From positions 7,229 through 30,773 of the forward strand of contig CAZYCQ010000004.1 in the NCBI GenBank assembly GCA_964645535.1: DNA of 23,545 bases, given 5' to 3'. The translations under genes and the position numbers were made by a program. The notes beneath the pieces were generated by a model, which saw only the letters and a program-made list of their open reading frames with translations, made no database searches and had not been told where the DNA came from. Of this stretch, positions 457 through 13,335 are shown one piece after another; the stretch's first letter is position 1; every line of letters begins with the position of its first letter. This stretch comes from an uncultured archaeon (lineage in GTDB: Archaea; Asgardarchaeota; Heimdallarchaeia; Heimdallarchaeales; Kariarchaeaceae).

Positions 457-1038
457 ATGAGTATTTCCTCCAGGCAAAAAATACTATTGGGAATTGCACT
501 TGTCTTCATTTTCATCATACATTCAATAAATACATCTGCAATCCCCATTCATTCCAAGGATGAGGGTCCCCCGTATCCCGCTTTACAGATATTCAAAACG
601 ATCAACGTTGAGGATGATTTAATACAAGTAGGAACTGAAATTCAGGTTTCGGTCAATATGACTAACTTTGGAGGAAAGACCGCAATCAATGTCAGTCTTG
701 TCGAACCTGTGCTACAGAATTTCACTATTTCCAACCTCAAAGGATATGATCCTAAGAATTGGATAAAGATAGGCCCTGGGGCAAGTGTGAGTTATTCATT
801 CTCATTCGTGATCGAAAAACCGGGAAACTACACCATTGAACCGACCACTGCAACATATCTTGATGAAAATCAAAATGAATATTCTGCAAAATCGGGTTTC
901 TTTGAACTGAATGTGATTAAAGGAAAACCTCCTGTTTCCTTGGACGAGGAATGGAGAATGGCGTTCATCCAAATGGGATCGATCCTTGCCCTCCCAATTA
1001 TTTGGCTTCTGTTAAAGAAATATGTAATTGATAAGTAA
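457..1038 (+). CDS. Translocon-associated protein beta (TRAP-beta/SSR2)-like / BatD-like single-pass membrane protein
   Basis: Signal peptide, one Ig-like domain (LQIFKTI..VGTEIQVSVNMTNFGGKTAINVSLVE..WIKIGPGASVSYSF..PGNYTIEPTTATY), C-terminal TM (EEWRMAFIQMGSILALPIIWLLL) and a short basic tail KKY. The size (193 aa) and motif order match SSR2 as I recall it. Confidence 0.7.
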   Translation: MSISSRQKILLGIALVFIFIIHSINTSAIPIHSKDEGPPYPALQIFKTINVEDDLIQVGTEIQVSVNMTNFGGKTAINVSLVEPVLQNFTISNLKGYDPKNWIKIGPGASVSYSFSFVIEKPGNYTIEPTTATYLDENQNEYSAKSGFFELNVIKGKPPVSLDEEWRMAFIQMGSILALPIIWLLLKKYVIDK

Positions 1039-1081
1039 GTAAAGAATATTATAACTGAGCTCCGATCAAGAATTAGAAAAT

Positions 1082-1087
1082 AGGTGA
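1082..1087 (+). promoter_or_regulatory. Shine-Dalgarno AGGTGA
   Basis: AGGTGA 5 nt upstream of ATG1093, favouring 1093 over GTG1084 as the start. Confidence 0.6.
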
Positions 1088-1092
1088 TTCTT

Positions 1093-2097
1093 ATGGTTTT
1101 ACAGAATTTAGTCGATAATCCTGATAAAAGATTTATTCTTGTAGGTGGAAAGGGCGGAACAGGTAAAACATCTTCTGCTGCCGCAATTGCAGTTTATTTC
1201 GCTGAAAGAGGAGAAAAAACATTGATCATTTCCACCGATCCTGCACATTCCCTATCTGATTCCTTTGACCAACCTTTGGGAAATAAAGACCCCGTTAAGA
1301 TAATAGGTGTTGAAGGAAGTCTATACGGACTTGAAATTGATCCTGAACAGGCTTCTGGTGATTTCGCTGAAGTCTTGAACATGACAGGTACAAGTACGGA
1401 TGACCTTGCCAATTCATTGGGTTCTATGGGATTGGACGAATTCAAGGACATGTTCTCCACCATGCCTCCCGGAGTTGATGAAGCTCTTGCATTGGCAAAA
1501 GTTATTCAATTTATTGAATCTCCTGAATATGAGGATTTTCAGAGAATCATCTTTGATACTGCCCCAACAGGACATACACTACGTCTTTTGGCATTGCCTG
1601 ATTTCCTTGATAGTTTTCTTGGCAAGGCAATGAAGCTCAGAGCCAAAATCAATAACATGTTTGCTGGTTTCAAGAGCCTCCTTGGAATGGAAGCCCAGAG
1701 GGACAATACAGTTGAGGCAATCGAAGCGCTGAAAGCCACAATAACCAAAGTCAGAGAATTCTTCCAAGACGAAAAAAGAACTGAATTCATTATCGTGACA
1801 ATCCCGACAATCATGGCAATCAATGAATCCGAAAGATTGGCAGAAGAATTGAAACTCCAAAATATTGCTGTAAAGAATGTCATTGTCAATCAGATCATGC
1901 CCAAAAATGTAGACTGCAAGTTTTGTCAAGCACGATCCGCAGGTCAGGAACAAAATTTGGAGTACATCCGGAGTTTGTTTGTCAATTACAATCTAACTGA
2001 GGTTCCATTTTTTGATCGAGAAATACGAGGAGTCCCCGCCTTACGAATCATGGCTCAAGCCCTTTTTGAAAAGAAATTTGTTCCATCTGAAACTTGA
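1093..2097 (+). CDS. get3: Get3/TRC40 (ArsA-family) ATPase, single domain
   Basis: Deviant Walker A [10 protein letters not shown], switch [11 protein letters not shown], switch II [12 protein letters not shown], Met-containing Get3 insert ([24 protein letters not shown]) and dimer CxxC (CKFC, 1915-1926). It has no other Cys residues. Confidence 0.9.
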   Translation: [334 protein letters not shown]

Positions 2098-2168
2098 AAT
2101 TTCTCCCATTCTTTAATTGTTTTCACAATAAATTTTTGAAGGACGAATTCATAGGCACCTTGAGAAAG

Positions 2169-4220
2169 ATGTCAGAGGACATAATGCAGACACAGCGATC
2201 AATCCCGATCAATCTTCGGATATTGCTCATCATCGCTTTATTGCTGGCTGGGCTAGGAATTCCTGCAATTTATTCAACCGCCCGCCAACAAGAGTTGGCA
2301 AAGAATATTGAAGTAGGTCTTGCCCATCAGGAAAGAGATCTAAACCTTGTCTCCTCAATTGAACGACTCAATGGCTATCTGAATCAAATCGTAAAGGATC
2401 AGTTGGTGGATACTTTTGAAAAATCAAGAAATAGGGAAGGTGTTGCAAATATTTCCTCAATCGCAAATATTACTAACGAAGTGCGTTCACGGATTCAAGA
2501 AGTCTCAACATTGCTTGACCAGCGAGGAGTTGAAGGATACAACTTGGAAACAATCGATCTGACCCCTGAAACTTTCCAGAACAATGAATTGGTCTTGTCA
2601 TTGTCTGCAATTAAACCCAATATTGAAATCAATTTGACTAATCAATTGGCATTGGTTCGTAACTTTACTAATCAATATTCAAACAAGATGGAAAATGTTG
2701 CAAATAATATCAGCTATATTGTTGGTCAACCTAGACCAGGCCTAAATCTCAAAGGAAGCCTTCTTTCCAATGCCACAACGGACTACAATTCGCTTATTGC
2801 AAATCTTAAGGCAAAATTCGACAATGCAACGGCTTTCAACGATAATGAAACCATTGCCTATGTTGCGGATGTTTTGGAACGAATTTCTGAATTCCCCAAT
2901 ATTTTCGATGAAATTCAAGATCTTGGGCTTCAATACCAGACGTATGCAATAACGGAATCTCCAGAAACGTTCCTTGACTTTTCCAAGAACTTCCTTCAAA
3001 AATTCAGCCTGCTAAAATTCAGAATTGATTTTGAATTTGAAAAATATCTAGATCCTACCTCAAACAGATATTTCGAACTTCAACCGGATGATTTAGATTT
3101 TGTCCAGCAGATGGCCCTTTCATTGCAGGGAGACGTACAAAATGGAACTGTCATTACCAAAGGTGCAGTTCATTACTTCAATGATTCTTATAACCTGCTT
3201 TTCGATGCGTATGAACTTATCAGCCAGATTCTTAATCAACAACTCCCTAGACTTGAAGTGATTCTTTCTGAATCAAGTGTCGAACTGAATTTCATGAAGG
3301 AAGTCATCAAAATTGAACTTGCAAACTTTATTGAAACCTTCAATGCATATGTGTCTGCTAGATCCAATGCAAACATTCTAATCCAGACCTTGATAATCGG
3401 TGCACTAGGGCTTCTGATATTTGGAGGAACCATTCCCTTCCTGAACCAAGTGAGAAAATTGACTGTAAGACTCGATCAAGGTTTTTCGAGAATTGCCAAT
3501 TATGACCTGAATATCCAGAAATTTGACAAAATTGAAGGAGGGGAATTGGGAAGAATTCAAATCGGTTTCAATAGAATGATTGACGAATTGAGAGGCATTC
3601 TCCAATCGTTGGCAGAAGCTAGCGAGATCCTGTCAACAATTTCAGAAACCATGGCTTCAAGTTCCGAAGAGGCGTCTGCTTCTGTAACGGAGGTCTCTGA
3701 CACAATTTCTCAAATCGCATATGGTGCTTCTGAACAGAACCGAGTTATTGAAGACCTCTCCCAACAATTGCAGCGCCATCTTGCAGAAGTCAATGATGCT
3801 ACCACTAGAATCAATGAAGCAAGCGCTTTCGTGAAACAGGTGGCGAAAAGAACAAACATTCTTGGTTTGAATGCTTCTATAGAGGCTGCAAAGGCAGGGC
3901 ATTTCGGACGAGGATTCAATGTTGTCGCAGAAAATGTCCGTGAACTTTCCGAAGATACCAAGAAATCTGCCAACGAAATATCTCAACTGATCGAGGATGT
4001 TTCGTTCAAGATTTCTCAGACTGTCAGAACAGTTATCGAGGAAATGGAGCAAGCAAGGGCTATTTCTGAAAATACTGCTTCAGGAAGTGAAGAAGCCAAT
4101 GCTGCAACTACCGAACAAGTCTCTATGCTCCATGAAATCAGTGAGCAGGCTGCGGAAATTGCCAATATTGCCACTGAATTAAATACGATCATGTCAAAAT
4201 TCAACTTCGCAATGAAATAA
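2169..4220 (+). CDS. Methyl-accepting chemotaxis protein (TM-sensor-TM-HAMP-MA)
   Basis: TM1 ILLIIALLLAGLGIPAIY, ~370-aa helical extracellular region, TM2 ILIQTLIIGALGLLIFGG, HAMP (GELGRIQIGFNRMIDEL) and hairpin tip RTNILGLNASIEAAKAGHFGRGFNVVAENVRELS. ATG2169 (MSEDI) is preferred over TTG2094. Confidence 0.93.
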   Translation: MSEDIMQTQRSIPINLRILLIIALLLAGLGIPAIYSTARQQELAKNIEVGLAHQERDLNLVSSIERLNGYLNQIVKDQLVDTFEKSRNREGVANISSIANITNEVRSRIQEVSTLLDQRGVEGYNLETIDLTPETFQNNELVLSLSAIKPNIEINLTNQLALVRNFTNQYSNKMENVANNISYIVGQPRPGLNLKGSLLSNATTDYNSLIANLKAKFDNATAFNDNETIAYVADVLERISEFPNIFDEIQDLGLQYQTYAITESPETFLDFSKNFLQKFSLLKFRIDFEFEKYLDPTSNRYFELQPDDLDFVQQMALSLQGDVQNGTVITKGAVHYFNDSYNLLFDAYELISQILNQQLPRLEVILSESSVELNFMKEVIKIELANFIETFNAYVSARSNANILIQTLIIGALGLLIFGGTIPFLNQVRKLTVRLDQGFSRIANYDLNIQKFDKIEGGELGRIQIGFNRMIDELRGILQSLAEASEILSTISETMASSSEEASASVTEVSDTISQIAYGASEQNRVIEDLSQQLQRHLAEVNDATTRINEASAFVKQVAKRTNILGLNASIEAAKAGHFGRGFNVVAENVRELSEDTKKSANEISQLIEDVSFKISQTVRTVIEEMEQARAISENTASGSEEANAATTEQVSMLHEISEQAAEIANIATELNTIMSKFNFAMK

Positions 4221-6151: not shown

Positions 6152-9100
6152 ATGAGCATTTCAGAAGGGAAATCCAACCGAAAAAGAAGAAGAAAACGGG
6201 GTATTACAAGAAGGGTAGTTGATGAACATGGCAATGTAATAGTCAAGAGATATACCAGGCGACAATCAAAGATCAGAATTCCTGGTCTTACTGCAAGAAA
6301 AATCCCTTCCCTGATGCTTGGACTTGTATTTGGCTTCTACGCGATGTTGGCATATTATGAGAGTAAGGGTGTACTTGCTAATAGTGAGAATAGCTTACTG
6401 CAATACTTTCATGAATTCTTCCTGTCAATGAACCCTGTTGTCAAGATATTTGCTGCTGGAACCATTGGCATTGCTCTTTCAACATTTTTTGGATATGCCT
6501 TCTTCACACAGGGCTTCAAAATAAAGAATTGGGGGAAAGCCTTTAGACAATTGGTTTCTATCCTCCTTGTGATTTTGGTTGCCTCTTCGATCCTTTCACC
6601 ATTCCTTACGGAGCCTGGCATCGTCAGACAGATCAGTGACGAAGATTTTCAACCACGGACTGATGAATTCGATCTAAGTGGACTAAACTCACCATTCTAT
6701 GATGAATTATTGAACAGTTTTCTAGATCTGCTCGGTGGTTTGGATCCAGACATCGCATATCAGGTGGTGGCAAATATCACTCCAACAGATTCCTTTGGCT
6801 TAGATCCTACGAGAGACATCTACCTTTTCAGATGGCAGGTATCTGAAACTTGGGATCCAGTAGCGAACGATTTCATAAAGGCGGATGAAACAACAATACT
6901 ACCTTTCAGTGGTTTTGACCCAGGGACTCAATCCCTTGATCCGGATTCCTTAAGATCCTTTGAGGTTGATAATGCTTACCTAACAGCTGTAACATCCTAT
7001 TCACAGCCTTTGGTCTCTTTTTGGAACTCCGAGGAAGGTGCAACCATCGCGAATACATCCCAATTTTCTCTGAAATCCTCCAATCCTGATATCCAACTGA
7101 GTTCCTTGGATGTCAATAATGATGTAAACGAACAGCCTATTGTAAATGCTAAATTTTCCGAAGCCTCATCCAGTGGTGCCATTAGTTTTCCCGCATGGTG
7201 GAAGGCTGAAGATGTGCAAGGCATAAGCTCTGGCGCTGTATCATTAGGTGAATTGGAAAGCCTTTTCGGTCAGGCTCCCTCGGATCGTTTCCCCAGTTCG
7301 AAACTTGCAAACAATGGTGAAGGCATTTCCAACTTTTGGGGAAGGAATTCCCTGCCAAAAAACTATATTTGGGCTGATCAAGAACTTGGCAAAGAAGATG
7401 CATTTACCAGAAAATACAATGAATTTGATAAGATTTTTACAGAGTCAACGTCTGTCTATGCTGCAATTATGACAATTCATACCTTTATCCAAAACGCAGT
7501 ATTGGAAGCATTCAACAACAACTACCTAAACTTTGACCCAATTGAGGGACAAGGCGATTTTGCAGGAACAACAGATAAAGGCCATTATTTCTATGAAGCC
7601 ATTGAAAACAATCTCCCTTGGGGTCTCAGGGAAATGCTTCCCGGTTATGTGAACATGTTGAGATCCTTTGGAATTCCTGCCCGCGTAGTTCTCGGTTTTG
7701 CAGGTGGGACAATAGATTCATCCAAAATAACTCTTCAAATGTTGAATAGGCACTATTGGGTTGAAGCCCTTATTCCTTGGAGGGACGATACTGGAACTTT
7801 GCATTGGAGTTGGGGAATTCTCAATCCTGTTCCCATATTCTCTGCCCTCCAAAGCGAACAAATTGCCTATGGAAGAAATGCACTGGGAGGTGGAAGTAGC
7901 CTCAAAGTTGACGTGGTCACTGGAGAGGAAAGCGTATCAGGTGTCCCAATCAAACTGCAGCAGATGGGAGAAAATTTCCAAGTTAATATCTCTGCTGATT
8001 TCAGCGGAGTTCCTGCTTCTGGTCAAAATATTCAACTTAAACTTCTAGATGACAATGATCAGTCACAACTCTTGTCTGGAACCCTCCCCACTGATCTAAG
8101 TAATTTTGGTTTAGATTTACCATCTATTACTCTAAATGATCGAGGTTACTATCTTCTTAATGGAACTGTCGATTACGAAGGAAACATGACGGTGAACGGA
8201 ACTGAAGTAACTACGATCAAACCAATTAATATCAATGCGGCATTGAATCCTGGGTTGGGAGAACCTGTCAATGGTTATGCCATTCTTGCCCTATTTGGAT
8301 TCACATATAATTTCACTGCAATTGCCTGGCTCAAGAATGGTACTTTGGTTGCCTCGTTTGTAGGACTGCAGACCAGTCCAATTCCTGGTGTTGATGCTCC
8401 CGGTACCGTGGTAACCCCAACAGTTCAATTCTCCATTGCAAGCACACTTTACAAGGCTGATGGGGCAACTCAAGGAAATGAAATTGTAGGTGAAAATCTT
8501 ACTTTACTCCTTTATACACAAACACAATATGAAAACTTGGATCTTACATCTTTAACGGATACTCAGGGTGCAAAAACCTATGCCGAGGGAATCCTTGATG
8601 CACAAACTCCTGCCACTCAGCAGACAGATACACAAGGTTCCACCCAATGGGATATTACCTTCCCCCTAAATGATCCCAGTTATCCTGTGGATGATGAAAT
8701 CTATATATTTATTGTCCAATGGGAAGGTAGCACTGTGTTTTCACTTCCATTAAGTGTCTTGGTTTCACTCAGAGCCCAAATGGATACTGTCTCGTATTTC
8801 AATACCTCTGTTCTATCATCCGGACAGACTGTGGATACATGGTATTCGAATATCACATTGACGTCCTTGGCAGGAGTTTTGATTGACCCGTTGCCAATTC
8901 ACGGCGTACCTGTTGATATTCTGCTAGTTAACAAGCTTGATTTTGACAATGCAGGTGTGACGACCTACTCTGATCTCCAATCTTTCTTGAGTGGTCAAAC
9001 CGAAGGAACAACATTTTACAATCTTAGCAACCCCACACTTCATCCAAATGTTCTGACTTTGGGAGGGGTGCCAATAACGGACAACAATGGATTTGTACAG

Positions 9101-9340
9101 GCGCAGATAAAGATTGCTGCAAATGAAATTGCTGCTGGCTTCTTCTATTATATCCTTGCGGTTGCTGATGAATTTTCCATCTTTACCATCCTTAAGAATG
9201 GAACAGATACCACCAATTTCCAATTTGGTGTGGCAGGTGCACCAAGTTTGCAAGATATCTCCATTACAAATCCAATGTCCATTGAAATCGTTGCTAAATA
9301 CGAAGACAAACTTGAATTAGATCTGGAGGGGCAAAAATGA
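6152..9340 (+). CDS. Membrane-anchored transglutaminase-like (TgpA-type) protein, catalytically degenerate, with C-terminal Ig-like beta domains
   Basis: Basic N-terminus (RKRRRKR), three TM helices, TGase-core motifs VNMLRSFGIPARVVLGF and HYWVE..W.ILNP (~7620-7835), then beta-rich repeats with TD..G motifs. No Cys in 1062 aa. Confidence 0.8.
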   Translation: MSISEGKSNRKRRRKRGITRRVVDEHGNVIVKRYTRRQSKIRIPGLTARKIPSLMLGLVFGFYAMLAYYESKGVLANSENSLLQYFHEFFLSMNPVVKIFAAGTIGIALSTFFGYAFFTQGFKIKNWGKAFRQLVSILLVILVASSILSPFLTEPGIVRQISDEDFQPRTDEFDLSGLNSPFYDELLNSFLDLLGGLDPDIAYQVVANITPTDSFGLDPTRDIYLFRWQVSETWDPVANDFIKADETTILPFSGFDPGTQSLDPDSLRSFEVDNAYLTAVTSYSQPLVSFWNSEEGATIANTSQFSLKSSNPDIQLSSLDVNNDVNEQPIVNAKFSEASSSGAISFPAWWKAEDVQGISSGAVSLGELESLFGQAPSDRFPSSKLANNGEGISNFWGRNSLPKNYIWADQELGKEDAFTRKYNEFDKIFTESTSVYAAIMTIHTFIQNAVLEAFNNNYLNFDPIEGQGDFAGTTDKGHYFYEAIENNLPWGLREMLPGYVNMLRSFGIPARVVLGFAGGTIDSSKITLQMLNRHYWVEALIPWRDDTGTLHWSWGILNPVPIFSALQSEQIAYGRNALGGGSSLKVDVVTGEESVSGVPIKLQQMGENFQVNISADFSGVPASGQNIQLKLLDDNDQSQLLSGTLPTDLSNFGLDLPSITLNDRGYYLLNGTVDYEGNMTVNGTEVTTIKPININAALNPGLGEPVNGYAILALFGFTYNFTAIAWLKNGTLVASFVGLQTSPIPGVDAPGTVVTPTVQFSIASTLYKADGATQGNEIVGENLTLLLYTQTQYENLDLTSLTDTQGAKTYAEGILDAQTPATQQTDTQGSTQWDITFPLNDPSYPVDDEIYIFIVQWEGSTVFSLPLSVLVSLRAQMDTVSYFNTSVLSSGQTVDTWYSNITLTSLAGVLIDPLPIHGVPVDILLVNKLDFDNAGVTTYSDLQSFLSGQTEGTTFYNLSNPTLHPNVLTLGGVPITDNNGFVQAQIKIAANEIAAGFFYYILAVADEFSIFTILKNGTDTTNFQFGVAGAPSLQDISITNPMSIEIVAKYEDKLELDLEGQK

Positions 9341-12300
9341 GGAAAATGGCAGTTATCATTCTTGTTTTGCTTATTGGACAATTGAACTTTGGTTTCGCTA
9401 ATTTCGTCTATCAAGACAGGAAAGCCTATGACGGCTCCAGTGCTTCGGATGAGTCAAAAGCAATCATTAAAAACCAAATTCTCCCTCCATCAAAAGCGAA
9501 TGAATTACCACAACAAATGATCTCCAAATCTATCAAATCCATTAAAACGATCAATAGCCACCATAGATTTTCATCTTTACACCCCAGCGCAAAGGAACCT
9601 TCTCGTCCTCTGTTTCCAATTAAAGTTGCTGCTACACAGGAAAACCATTCCACCGCTGTTGGCTCAACTCTTTCCATTACTGGAACATTAAAGAGTGGTT
9701 CGGTCCCATGGACGGATGAACCTGTAGTCTTAATTCGTCCTGGATATGCAAATGTAACTGTAACCACAGATTCAGTAACTGGTGATTACCAGTTTGATTT
9801 GACGTATACCATAAATGATATCGGAAGACATAACTACACAGTCTATTTCCCCGGAAATCCTTCTTTGCTTCGGGTTGCGGCAGTTCTGAAGTATGGTGTC
9901 ATTACTGTAACCGATACCATAACCATGAAGGCAACAACTGATCAGGTTACAACAACTGTTCCCCCAAACACAGGATACAATGTCATAATAACCTTTGAAT
10001 TTTCGGATGGCACTCCATTTGATCCCACTGCCGTGAATTTCAAAGATGAATTCAATACACCTTATGATTTTTCCACTTTAGCGCTTAATGTAACAGAAAC
10101 CTATCAAGATACGGGCGGAGGTACTCCTGACACCAGTACTGCACTGAATCAAATTGGACTGCCTGTCTCCTCAGATACGATTACTCTCCCAAGCAATACC
10201 GGGAATCAGATTGCCTCAATGAATATCCTACTGTCTGTTTTCCTGAAAAATTTTGAACCGTTTACGAAAATCTTGACATTTAAATCTGAAACTGATGTGC
10301 AAAATCCCTACATCGTCAATAAACTGATACTGCAAATTGAAGTTGAGTTTGTATTTACTGCATCTTTCTTTATTGATGGAGTTCCCCTTGATGGAAGTAG
10401 GTATTATCGCAACAACCAGAACATTACTGTTTTCGGCCAATTGTCAAATGCTGTTCTTGATCCCTCTTATGTAAGAGGTGTCGGATATACTTGGACCCTG
10501 CAATATGGAACCTCCACAATTGCAGTTCGAAATGGGAAAACAGATGTTAATGGACAACTCCAAGAAACTTTCTTCCTGAACAAGACAACATTCAACAATC
10601 CTCTATTGGATGTTCGCATTACTGTTCAAATTGACACCTCAAATTCAACAATCACCAATCTAAACCCAAGTTCGGTTTCCACATCATTTGGACTTTACGA
10701 ATATATCGCGTCCATTTCCGTGAATTCTCTTCCTTCAACATCTGAAGTTTATGCAAAACAGGGAGATCAATTCGTTGTAAACGGAACCCTGCTGGACGTG
10801 GATAACAAACCTGTAGAAAGTGCAACAGTTAAAATAGAGTTATTTGATTCATTGAATGTTGCTTCTTCTCAGTCATTTTCAGCTTCCACTGATGCCACCG
10901 GTTTCTTCCAAACCATAGTAACACTTCCTGATTTGAGTACAGGAAATGGAAATTTCTCGATATTGACAAGTGTGATTAATGGCTCTTCTCCAAATTCAGT
11001 TTGGTACGTGACTGCCCCACTTAATGCAACCCATGGTTCGTTCAACTTTACCAGGGGCGCTCAGCTTACCGTCCAAAACCTAAATGGTGTTCCATTGGTC
11101 AATGGTGATACAATTGACGTATTCAATATCACCTTTTTCCAACTCCTTCAATCTGATCCCAATTATACAATTTCTGTTGTTGACTTCTTCGGACGTGCAC
11201 CCTTGGGAATGAACGTGAAGGTGGTTGAAACAGGTTCCACTTGGACTGCAAATTCCAATGTGTTTACCGTCAATTCAACAAACAATGGAAACTTTGTCGT
11301 AAAAATAAATGATTTCAGTCAAATTCTGAACTCAACTGGACCGAATGCCGCAAGATTGCTTAATCGGGCTGGAGATTCCTTTGTTTACACGATTGTCCTG
11401 TTGGATTCAAGTGGAGGAACCGCTCAAAGCGTGTCCGAAACCTATCGGATTTATGGATCCGATGAAGAACCCCCTACATTGAATCTCAATTCATTGACAA
11501 TCTTAAATGCAAACACTCCGAATGATGTCAATGTATCTATCGCTCTGGCAGACCCAACTCAGGTTCATAACATAAGGAATGTAACAATCTGGTTCAGGCT
11601 GAGTGTCAATTCAAACGTGAATGATACAACGCCGGATTTCACTGGACAGACATATGAACCTCGTCTCATGATCAATGACACTTTGAATAACAGGTTTTTC
11701 TTTACCTTCAAATTCAACACATCCCAGAATGGCATCTGGATCGACTTTTACATAATTGCATATGATCTGGCTGGAAATGGATTGGATATCAACGGAATTA
11801 CAATAAGACCTCCTGCCTATGATCCATCATATACCTTGTCCTATGATATCCGTACTGATCCAAATTGGTCAAATCAAGGAATATTCAGAATGGGAGATAC
11901 TGCAATCAATCCCATCAATATGGGGACTGATGTCACTGTCAACGGTACACAATTGGGAGCATTTGATGGCAATGTTGACAATGGCTCGACCCTAGTCATC
12001 ATATTCAATGCTCCTTCAGATGCTTCCGGAATTTCTAAGGTCTATATCGTCTATAGGACTCGAACTATTGACCCAATAACATTGCAGGGTGGAGCATGGT
12101 CTGACAATATCACAGCAGAGATGCAGAAAATGAACGATTTCCAGTGGAACTATACTTTTGGGTCAGACCTATTGGTTTGGGGTGTAGAAATAGATTACAG
12201 GTTCTTATATCGTGATTCTTTCGGAAATACGGCAGAAACTGAATTTACCAGTGAGTTATTCTCTGGATCACAAATCAGGCGAAATCCTGTCGTAATAGAT

Positions 12301-13335
12301 GAAACCACACCCACCGTGATTGTAAACCTTGAATCTCCCTATGGTTCAACTTATCCGATTGCAGGAAGGGATGGAAATAACGGAACAGCCTATGAGGTGT
12401 GGACAAATGAGACTGTTAAATTAATTCTGGAAATTAACGACTTTGATGGATCTGGCCTCAAGAATGTAACTGTTCAAATTATCTATTATGATGAAAATGG
12501 AACTTTGATATCAGATACGACGGTTATCCTTTATGAATCTTCAATTTTTGGTGAAGGACAAGCTTTGAATTTAACGTACACAATTCCGACCGATTCCTAT
12601 GCAATCAATGGTTCATTTACTTGGATCGTCAATGCAACAGACAAGTTTGGAAATTCTGCAGTTCTCAATCAAGATGGGATTTCCCTAATAATACGAGAAC
12701 CCCCGACACCTCCGTTGCCTCCTGATCAGACAGTGATTTCAACTGAGATTACAACAACCATCAATGGTTCCGTGGTGACGCTTCAGACATCATTGACCAT
12801 CAGTAATGCAACTACAACCACTCAAGCCAATGATTTCAGAGGGTTAATCATTCTTGGATTTTTCATTTTGGGATTGGTTTTGCTTGTGGTCTACTATAAG
12901 CGTCACACATTCCTTGAATATCTCAGGCGACGAAACCGTGCGAGATTGCTCACCTCCCGATTACAAGACATTACTGATGACATCGTCCGTCTAGCAAAAG
13001 ACGGCAACTATAAGGAGGCTGTTTTACTGATTTGGCAGGCTTTTGAACGAGCTTGTAGAGAGGCATTGCAATCACCACGGAAATACAACATGACAGTGCG
13101 TATGTACGTCGATTATATAGGGACAATTTCTCTTGTCGATCCTCTCATTCTCACAACCTTGGCTCATATCTTTGAAAAGGCTAGGTATGGGAACGAGGAG
13201 ATCACAGAAGATGACTTCAAGGAGGCGTTCAACGCTCTCGAAGTCACAATTCAAACCCTGATTGCCACAGGCGCAAGAAAGGTCATCCTTGAAGACGAGG
13301 ATGAAGACTTCGATATTGGTATCGAAGAAGAATAA
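9337..13335 (+). CDS. Large cell-surface glycoprotein: signal peptide, multiple Ig-like domains, Pro/Thr linker, TM, cytoplasmic DUF4129, acidic tail
   Basis: Signal MRKMAVIILVLLIG; G.L....P.....TD..G-type and D..P..D.SG...D..GN-type repeats (AYDLAGN, YRDSFGN, ATDKFGN); about 35 N-x-S/T sequons; TM at ~12841-12897; DUF4129-like motif MTVRMY..LAHIFEKARYGNEEITEDD; tail EDEDEDFDIGIEEE. ATGA overlap with the upstream gene. Confidence 0.8.
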   Translation: MRKMAVIILVLLIGQLNFGFANFVYQDRKAYDGSSASDESKAIIKNQILPPSKANELPQQMISKSIKSIKTINSHHRFSSLHPSAKEPSRPLFPIKVAATQENHSTAVGSTLSITGTLKSGSVPWTDEPVVLIRPGYANVTVTTDSVTGDYQFDLTYTINDIGRHNYTVYFPGNPSLLRVAAVLKYGVITVTDTITMKATTDQVTTTVPPNTGYNVIITFEFSDGTPFDPTAVNFKDEFNTPYDFSTLALNVTETYQDTGGGTPDTSTALNQIGLPVSSDTITLPSNTGNQIASMNILLSVFLKNFEPFTKILTFKSETDVQNPYIVNKLILQIEVEFVFTASFFIDGVPLDGSRYYRNNQNITVFGQLSNAVLDPSYVRGVGYTWTLQYGTSTIAVRNGKTDVNGQLQETFFLNKTTFNNPLLDVRITVQIDTSNSTITNLNPSSVSTSFGLYEYIASISVNSLPSTSEVYAKQGDQFVVNGTLLDVDNKPVESATVKIELFDSLNVASSQSFSASTDATGFFQTIVTLPDLSTGNGNFSILTSVINGSSPNSVWYVTAPLNATHGSFNFTRGAQLTVQNLNGVPLVNGDTIDVFNITFFQLLQSDPNYTISVVDFFGRAPLGMNVKVVETGSTWTANSNVFTVNSTNNGNFVVKINDFSQILNSTGPNAARLLNRAGDSFVYTIVLLDSSGGTAQSVSETYRIYGSDEEPPTLNLNSLTILNANTPNDVNVSIALADPTQVHNIRNVTIWFRLSVNSNVNDTTPDFTGQTYEPRLMINDTLNNRFFFTFKFNTSQNGIWIDFYIIAYDLAGNGLDINGITIRPPAYDPSYTLSYDIRTDPNWSNQGIFRMGDTAINPINMGTDVTVNGTQLGAFDGNVDNGSTLVIIFNAPSDASGISKVYIVYRTRTIDPITLQGGAWSDNITAEMQKMNDFQWNYTFGSDLLVWGVEIDYRFLYRDSFGNTAETEFTSELFSGSQIRRNPVVIDETTPTVIVNLESPYGSTYPIAGRDGNNGTAYEVWTNETVKLILEINDFDGSGLKNVTVQIIYYDENGTLISDTTVILYESSIFGEGQALNLTYTIPTDSYAINGSFTWIVNATDKFGNSAVLNQDGISLIIREPPTPPLPPDQTVISTEITTTINGSVVTLQTSLTISNATTTTQANDFRGLIILGFFILGLVLLVVYYKRHTFLEYLRRRNRARLLTSRLQDITDDIVRLAKDGNYKEAVLLIWQAFERACREALQSPRKYNMTVRMYVDYIGTISLVDPLILTTLAHIFEKARYGNEEITEDDFKEAFNALEVTIQTLIATGARKVILEDEDEDFDIGIEEE

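Follow-up and report, generated by a model that had tools for sequence, protein, structure and literature searches.

ATPases of the Get3 type are described from the eukaryotic cytosol, from organelles of plants and algae, and from archaea. The cytosolic Get3/TRC40/GET3a proteins include yeast Get3, human ASNA1, plant GET3A, and the diatom Get3a (8HAC). The organellar GET3b/c proteins (GET3bc) include Arabidopsis GET3B and GET3C, Chlamydomonas ArsA1 (5ZME), and Phaeodactylum Get3b. The Chlamydomonas protein, also written ARSA1, is a GET3bc-type tandem with evidence for a stromal location (PMC8644595), and in thylakoids plant GET3B encounters ALB3/ALB4 (PMC12040988). To plant cell biologists, GET3B/C is a puzzling extra paralogue. 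The archaeal proteins, with solved structures from M. thermautotrophicus (3ZQ6) and M. jannaschii (3UG6), bind tail-anchored proteins, according to the passages of PMC5382584 and PMC11170914 that cite Sherrill 2011 and Suloway 2012. Here, we analyze a get3 gene and its product, P0001, from an uncultured Asgard archaeon of the family Kariarchaeaceae; the window is the whole 23,545-nucleotide (23.5-kb) stretch of contig under study. The overall explanation that we favor, and consider likely, is that Kariarchaeaceae are, among known prokaryotes, the closest relatives of GET3bc, and that GET3bc derives from a Kariarchaeaceae-related archaeal Get3 and not from an endosymbiont.

With the organellar proteins, P0001 shares 47–50% identity across the ATPase, a CxxC motif (as it occurs in land plants and the single-domain forms of red algae), an insertion of 3 residues ahead of switch II, and the stretches TEF(I/V)xxTIPTxMA..ES.RL and EIRGVPAL. 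GET3bc differs in carrying a transit peptide and a C-terminal extension, and many algal forms are tandem; P0001 is a single-domain protein on an archaeal contig. It begins 12 residues before the first strand without a transit peptide, where GET3B has 70–200 extra residues, and its membrane partners must differ from ALB3/ALB4. Methanogen Get3 resembles P0001 in length, P-loop, switches, helical insert, and CxxC, matches it over the full length (240 bits for 3ZQ6 and 212 for 3UG6), and presumably acts alike in tail-anchor targeting. Unlike P0001, it has no 3-residue insertion; identity is 38–41% (BLASTP, L037 and L054), and in trees methanogen Get3 is the outgroup to all Asgard Get3. The cytosolic proteins share the fold family and catalytic motifs with P0001, but are 31–36% identical and have their own TTFVCVCI.EFLSLYETERL signature and a short spacer before switch II. 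E. coli R773 ArsA (1F48) belongs to the same P-loop superfamily and Pfam family; in contrast to P0001, it is a tandem of ~583 amino acids from an ars operon, binds metalloids through three cysteines, and is without the helical insert.

The get3 coding sequence runs from ATG 1093 to TGA 2097 (1093..2097, stop included; plus strand, like every window feature given with coordinates below) and encodes 334 amino acids, according to the list of open reading frames (ORFs) and the translation. An earlier note on this DNA, made from the letters alone, had claimed a Get3 ORF here. Its coordinates are right, the ATG–TGA frame is present, and the peptides that it cited all occur: residues 125–173 and 230–249, DCKFC (274–278), and EIRGVPALR (310–318). 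A Shine-Dalgarno-like AGGTGA, read from the sequence, lies at 1080..1085, with 7 nucleotides between its end and the ATG. Close relatives start at the same position as P0001. Because of this upstream element and the matching start of relatives, ATG 1093 is the likely start in preference to GTG 1084. The genome (a 3.6-Mb assembly, 89% complete, with the window on contig 4) has a single match to PF02374, that is, one Get3 gene.

Database searches place proteins of the same lineage nearest to P0001 and GET3B next. The closest proteins are 54–94% identical and, where labeled, come from Heimdallarchaeota or Kariarchaeaceae; the Get3 of a genome from the same GTDB family (G145) clusters with Kariarchaeaceae-labeled proteins. 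By these relatives, the contig is Asgard (Heimdallarchaeia, Kariarchaeaceae), as the earlier note had taken it to be. After the Heimdall-group proteins, the next named matches are GET3B of land plants, charophytes, chlorophytes, and red algae. The resemblance to GET3b/c over cytosolic Get3, pointed out in the earlier note, is real and far beyond chance (47–50% against 31–36% identity). The best solved structure for P0001 is Chlamydomonas ARSA1 (5zme; 249 bits for one domain and 281 for the other); archaeal Get3 structures score 212–240 bits, fungal, human, and Giardia Get3 143–190, and E. coli ArsA 127. A reciprocal search with Physcomitrium GET3B, run as an exhaustive HMMER search over 1.84 billion cluster representatives, returned as its best single-domain prokaryotic match P0025 (51%, 321 bits), a protein of the Kariarchaeaceae type (family f1), with further Heimdall and Asgard proteins behind it. 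Pairwise BLAST gives GET3B an identity of 49–50% to f1 proteins, 34–43% to other Asgard Get3, and 30–33% to GET3a; GET3a itself is about equally distant (27–38%) from all Asgard Get3. The named holders of GET3bc are all plastid-bearing: land plants, green and red algae, chlorarachniophytes, and a raphidophyte. One further member is located on an algal contig.

A cyanobacterial or alphaproteobacterial endosymbiont as the origin of GET3bc is not supported, because no bacterial group came near GET3bc in the searches, the high-ranking tandem matches are archaeal or eukaryotic, and cyanobacterial proteins belong to Get3d, a separate clade (Barlow 2023, PMC10248533). No cyanobacterial or alphaproteobacterial sequence is among the best 80 contig matches listed. 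The tandem matches to GET3B of 640–700 amino acids were candidates for cyanobacterial proteins; those with names proved to be DPANN/Bathyarchaeota archaea or red-algal GET3a tandems.

Two side observations concern these searches. A clade of tandem two-domain Get3 (~650 amino acids; P0166, P0191, and ~50 representatives) occurs in DPANN (Nanoarchaeota) and Bathyarchaeota and adjoins the Asgard-plus-eukaryote part of the FastTree phylogeny. In addition, P0259 (336 amino acids; L155:334-1344), on a compact, high-GC, prokaryote-looking metagenome contig of 3.7 kb from the Joint Genome Institute (JGI), has an ArsA-like N-terminal half (STDPASNLSE) and a C-terminal half like green-algal GET3B, and falls inside green-algal GET3bc in the FastTree phylogeny. 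A chimeric assembly or a transfer from an alga to a bacterium may explain it.

The insertion before switch II was scored free of alignment, by counting the residues from the G.DE motif to DTAPTGH. In P0001, the site is SPEYEDFQR (1519..1545), where the 3 inserted residues precede a conserved Arg, a feature common to Kariarchaeaceae Get3 and eukaryotic GET3bc. The spacer is 24 residues in 35 of 35 scorable f1 proteins (one more is without the motif) and 24–25 in all 31 red-type GET3bc domains; the largest class in the main GET3bc clade is also 24 (41 domains). It is 21 in all 202 scorable proteins of the GET3a clade and, among the 35 scorable named archaea outside Asgard, in 32; it is 21–22 in every other scorable Asgard family except f19. 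The inserted residues and the next Arg are alike in f1 and GET3bc (..EY..F.RI.FDTAP).

Phylogenetic trees bring f1 and GET3bc together. They combined Asgard Get3 from 27 GTDB families and named archaeal and bacterial homologues with GET3bc of green plants and algae, red algae, chlorarachniophytes, and a raphidophyte, and with GET3a of animals, chytrids, diatoms, red algae, and protists (plant GET3A was absent). The GET3a proteins were collected with a 70-residue piece of diatom Get3a as query, followed by a profile search. Three trees were built: FastTree on 672 domains, a quick posterior mean site frequency (PMSF) tree under LG+C20+F+G4 on 110 rows, and a careful PMSF tree under the same model on 84 rows and 328 columns. 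In the FastTree phylogeny, GET3bc lies within the part formed by the window's order, and a subclade of red-algal single-domain forms lies inside f1. The f1+GET3bc clade recurs in the quick tree (97 in the Shimodaira–Hasegawa-like approximate likelihood ratio test, SH-aLRT) and in the careful tree (support 100/97), where it is placed among f2, f3, and f4, of the same order, and f6, of the same class. There, the window's genus is sister (99/90) to the other Kariarchaeaceae together with both GET3bc subclades, f1 is monophyletic in just 1% of bootstrap trees, and the node that bears on one versus two transfers has support 90/60. The family f1 is stem or sister of GET3bc and not inside the eukaryotic crown. 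The earlier note would have taken a place of P0001 beside GET3bc in such a phylogeny as support. The family of P0001 does group there, apart from GET3a, from generic archaeal Get3, and from every bacterial group sampled; its own genus is not the nearest branch, since other Kariarchaeaceae branch nearer.

GET3a (e.g. P0523, P0294, and P0454) forms a separate clade (100/100) in the careful tree. It joins the base of the Heimdall-type group (95/86) and not Hodarchaeales or a position outside Asgard; this placement is uncertain because the branch is very long (1.16 substitutions per site). The Hodarchaeales proteins (L112-L115, L045, L047) also form a long branch (0.92), apart from other Heimdallarchaeia and with other Asgard classes. 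In approximately unbiased (AU) tests, a single Asgard clade without eukaryotes inside, the Asgard group having been set beforehand by taxonomy, is rejected (difference in log-likelihood, delta lnL, 70.7; p 0.002). A Heimdall-type group without GET3bc is rejected as well (delta lnL 53.1, p 0.006).

Several points weigh against our explanation. Family f19 also has a 24-residue spacer, of the unrelated sequence EKKDEHDYD, and a 3-residue loop insertion can arise twice. Some 20 tandem GET3bc domains of red algae and of stramenopiles, alveolates, and Rhizaria (SAR) have the short spacer, which we read as a secondary change that weakens the character somewhat. The tree is that of a single gene with ~328 columns, and several algal GET3bc rows have deviant composition. 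It contained no cyanobacterial or alphaproteobacterial rows, so that what excludes them is the ranking of search matches and the work of Barlow et al. 2023. The Heimdall-type group behind the p of 0.006 had three families and L032 added after the tree was seen. AU tests do not reject f1 monophyly, with GET3bc as sister and not nested (delta lnL 8.2, p 0.17), or one clade of all eukaryotic Get3, GET3a and GET3bc together (delta lnL 20.2, p 0.076). With its placement of Hodarchaeales, the gene tree agrees imperfectly with the species tree. Finally, heterotrophic eukaryotes lie outside the survey of GET3bc holders.

Such features might suggest that the f1–GET3bc grouping is an artefact of slow evolution, composition, or alignment, with no specific archaeal donor behind it; the short alignment, the deviant rows, and the long branches of GET3a and Hodarchaeales would all be in keeping with that. 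We consider an artefact very improbable. The grouping was repeated across three samplings and methods (support 100/97), the AU tests reject the alternatives (p 0.002 and 0.006), plain identities agree, and the alignment-free spacer count reveals a common insertion.

P0001 is an ordinary, native, single-copy Get3 of Kariarchaeaceae and a normal member of a known family. A Get3 match is present in 140 of 151 sampled Asgard genomes, nearly always as one orthologue; named records in the surveyed phylum are Hodarchaeum, Thorarchaeota, Promethearchaeota, and Borrarchaeum. Identity to P0001 is 62–86% within the genus, 59% within the family, 43–52% within the order, 39–41% in Hodarchaeales, and 37–52% in other classes. 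Because identity drops with taxonomic distance, get3 appears native to archaea and vertically inherited there. A homologue of the upstream TRAP-beta-like protein adjoins get3 in families f1, f2, f4, f6, f14, and f19 and in Hodarchaeum mangrovi (tblastn). The gene is native to archaea and the direction is from archaeon to eukaryote, because the f1+GET3bc clade sits where f1 taxonomy predicts and this gene neighborhood is kept in f1. The reverse, in which an early alga gave GET3bc to an ancestor of Kariarchaeaceae and displaced the native Get3, is very improbable. The f1+GET3bc clade, taken alone, fits both directions, and f1 monophyly is not rejected, yet the clade is nested among Get3 of the same order (f2, f3, and f4) and class (f6), as for a native gene. 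Moreover, f1 retains the TRAP-beta/get3 neighborhood of other Asgard lineages, and in the best tree it is paraphyletic around GET3bc, not nested within it.

The earlier note had proposed that organellar GET3bc may descend from a paralogue of the Asgard host and not from an endosymbiont. The Asgard tie, specifically to Kariarchaeaceae-like proteins, stands, with the AU test (p 0.002) and the insertion in its favor; the host paralogue is not supported. There is one Get3 in this genome and in nearly all of the 140 Asgard genomes, no GET3a-like copy was found in them, and none of those sampled pairs an a-like with a bc-like copy. We see no sign of an archaeal a/bc duplication because the extra Asgard copies are Get3d-like or bacterial-like. 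Distant, Get3d-like second copies, of 387–389 amino acids, occur in families f14 and f19 (Borrarchaeum), at L134:301-1461, L135:158-1318 (minus strand), and L142:298-1464. They have a C-terminal alpha-crystallin-like tail as in cyanobacterial and plant Get3d; the window's genome is without such a copy. Two candidates for a GET3a-like form were dismissed. The Asgard paralogue L137 is a neighbor of GET3a in the FastTree phylogeny, but at 23–28% identity this is a long-branch effect, and Hodarchaeales Get3 scores no nearer to GET3a than P0001 does.

Compared with a later transfer, it is less likely that GET3bc was inherited from the host of eukaryogenesis. Under such vertical descent, the single Get3 of the host would have passed to stem eukaryotes and duplicated there, or already in the host; GET3a would have evolved fast, GET3bc would have stayed archaeal-like, and GET3bc would have survived only where it was recruited to plastids or mitochondria. 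The single eukaryotic clade that the AU test does not reject (p-AU 0.076) agrees with this history, as does the joining of GET3a, on its long branch, to the Heimdall-type part of the tree. In the plant literature (PMC8644595, citing Xing 2017 and Farkas 2019), the a/bc split is likewise taken for a duplication early among eukaryotes. We nevertheless hold vertical descent to be unlikely. The a-like plus bc-like pair is missing from all sampled Asgard genomes, and GET3bc is tied to one family and to its insertion, absent from GET3a and the sister families. The history also needs the loss of GET3bc in all plastid-lacking supergroups, the insertion to be lost or missing in GET3a, and a tie between eukaryotes and Kariarchaeaceae that does not figure in the published species trees, as presented in the title and abstract of PMC10307638 and in PMC12222021. 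A later transfer fits better than host inheritance because GET3bc groups with one family of Heimdallarchaeia, and not with the Asgard base or Hodarchaeales.

As to the route, we lean toward horizontal transfer, in one or two events, to an early archaeplastid ancestor, after which GET3bc spread along with secondary plastids. Transfer is favored because it accounts for the position of GET3bc at the level of one family, for the insertion in common, and for named GET3bc holders being confined to plastid-bearing lineages (PMC8644595, PMC11170914). A fuller scenario is more tentative, its chance falling a little short of even: after eukaryogenesis, a Kariarchaeaceae-related Get3 entered an early plastid-bearing alga, gave rise to stromal GET3B and mitochondrial GET3C, and spread with secondary plastids.

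The link between GET3bc and Asgard archaea appears to be undescribed so far. In the literature on GET3bc and GET3B, we found no paper that ties the clade to Asgard archaea; an earlier notice in Xing et al. 2017 (PNAS), where GET3a and GET3bc were defined, is possible. Asgard archaea go unmentioned with regard to GET3bc in Farkas 2019 (PMC6593721), Barlow 2023 (PMC10248533), and Mehlhorn 2021 (PMC8644595), as well as in the diatom and GET3B papers (PMC11170914, PMC12040988), and Neveu et al. (bioRxiv 10.1101/810531) go no further than noting the presence of Get3 in Heimdallarchaeota. The relevance extends to plant cell biology and to eukaryote evolution: the gene itself is ordinary, and it is its relationship that matters. 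The Kariarchaeaceae link provides GET3bc with a definite source among prokaryotes and with a history that can be tested. Either a sorting factor of organelles came by a rare Asgard-to-alga transfer, or the last eukaryotic common ancestor (LECA) kept an archaeal-type Get3 beside a derived cytosolic one. If the transfer is true, a core factor of plastid protein sorting came from Asgard archaea by horizontal transfer, and from neither the cyanobacterium nor the original host. In addition, P0001 offers a simple, single-domain, transit-peptide-free stand-in for GET3B biochemistry.

By its motifs, P0001 is a Get3/TRC40-type ATPase and not a subunit of an arsenite pump. It scores 288 bits against Pfam ArsA_ATPase (PF02374) over residues 13–325 and 285 bits against TIGR00345 GET3_arsA_TRC40 (cut-off 135). 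The Get3 fold is taken as settled because of sequence identity to solved Get3 structures. A deviant Walker A P-loop of the signature-lysine type, GGKGGTGKT (1144..1170; residues 18–26), is invariant in archaeal relatives and GET3B in alignment A1; switch I, of the DPAH..SD type (1231..1260; residues 47–56), is kept in every group of the alignment; and switch II, DTAPTGHT (1555..1578; residues 155–162), is invariant in alignment A1. By alignment to 3zq6, the helical client-binding subdomain, including the equivalent of the TRC40 insert, starts at 1594..1704 (residues 168–204). The TRC40-type insert is present because residues 152–271 align to M. thermautotrophicus Get3 with one 3-residue gap only, whereas E. 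coli ArsA covers this stretch with ~18 fewer residues. The CxxC motif, CKFC (1915..1926), holds the sole cysteines of the protein, Cys275 and Cys278; it is kept in f1, land-plant GET3B, and red-algal single-domain GET3bc, and, from solved Get3 structures, we infer that it would hold zinc at the dimer interface. P0001 ends at residue 334, directly past the ATPase core, without a C-terminal alpha-crystallin domain, and has the CxxC that is absent from Get3d; it is not of the Get3d type.

That P0001 is ArsA, the catalytic subunit of a pump for arsenite efflux, is what the source annotations, 'ArsA family ATPase' and 'arsenite-transporting ATPase', and the Pfam family name would imply, and this is almost certainly wrong. 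The score against the ArsA equivalog TIGR04291 is 140 bits, with a cut-off of 650. The protein is one domain without tandem halves (334 amino acids against a chain of ~580 in ArsA), the ArsA triad of metalloid-binding cysteines is absent, with two cysteines in all, both in CxxC, and the helical insert missing from ArsA is present. None of the ORFs of the window is an ars gene (arsB, acr3, arsD, or arsR). The earlier note had argued for Get3 and against ArsA on the same grounds of domain number, cysteines, and neighboring genes, and it was correct on each.

The likely mechanism of P0001 is drawn from its motifs and from cytosolic Get3/TRC40 proteins and other studied Get3 proteins. Two Get3 subunits would be bridged by a zinc ion on the CxxC pair. 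With ATP bound and the dimer closed, a hydrophobic groove would form from the helical subdomains and cover the C-terminal transmembrane helix of tail-anchored proteins. Client release would proceed through hydrolysis of ATP and a receptor or insertase in the membrane, probably an Oxa1-superfamily protein of the DUF106/EMC3-like type. The genome holds two EMC3/TMCO1 (DUF106, Oxa1-superfamily) genes as candidate receptors (L152/L153), at G000:C11:61121-61618 on the minus strand and G000:C9:54029-54529 on the plus strand. One of the two sits in a 495-aa open frame, far longer than usual for the family.

Neighboring genes complete the window. The TRAP-beta-like membrane protein is encoded at 457..1038, 54 nucleotides upstream of get3; it has 193 amino acids, a signal peptide, a C-terminal anchor, and a match to Pfam PF05753 TRAP_beta (43 bits, cut-off 22.4). 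Downstream, a protein with a methyl-accepting chemotaxis signaling domain (2094-4220; 708 amino acids) is listed with a TTG start that overlaps the get3 stop by 4 nucleotides; this chemotaxis-receptor-like protein begins at or just past that stop. Further genes of the window encode a threonine-aldolase-type lyase, thymidylate kinase, and GTP cyclohydrolase I. Two adjacent giant ORFs of 1062 and 1332 amino acids (6152-13335) have weak matches to the transglutaminase core and DUF4129, and are followed by genes of the DUF4129 and DUF4350 types.

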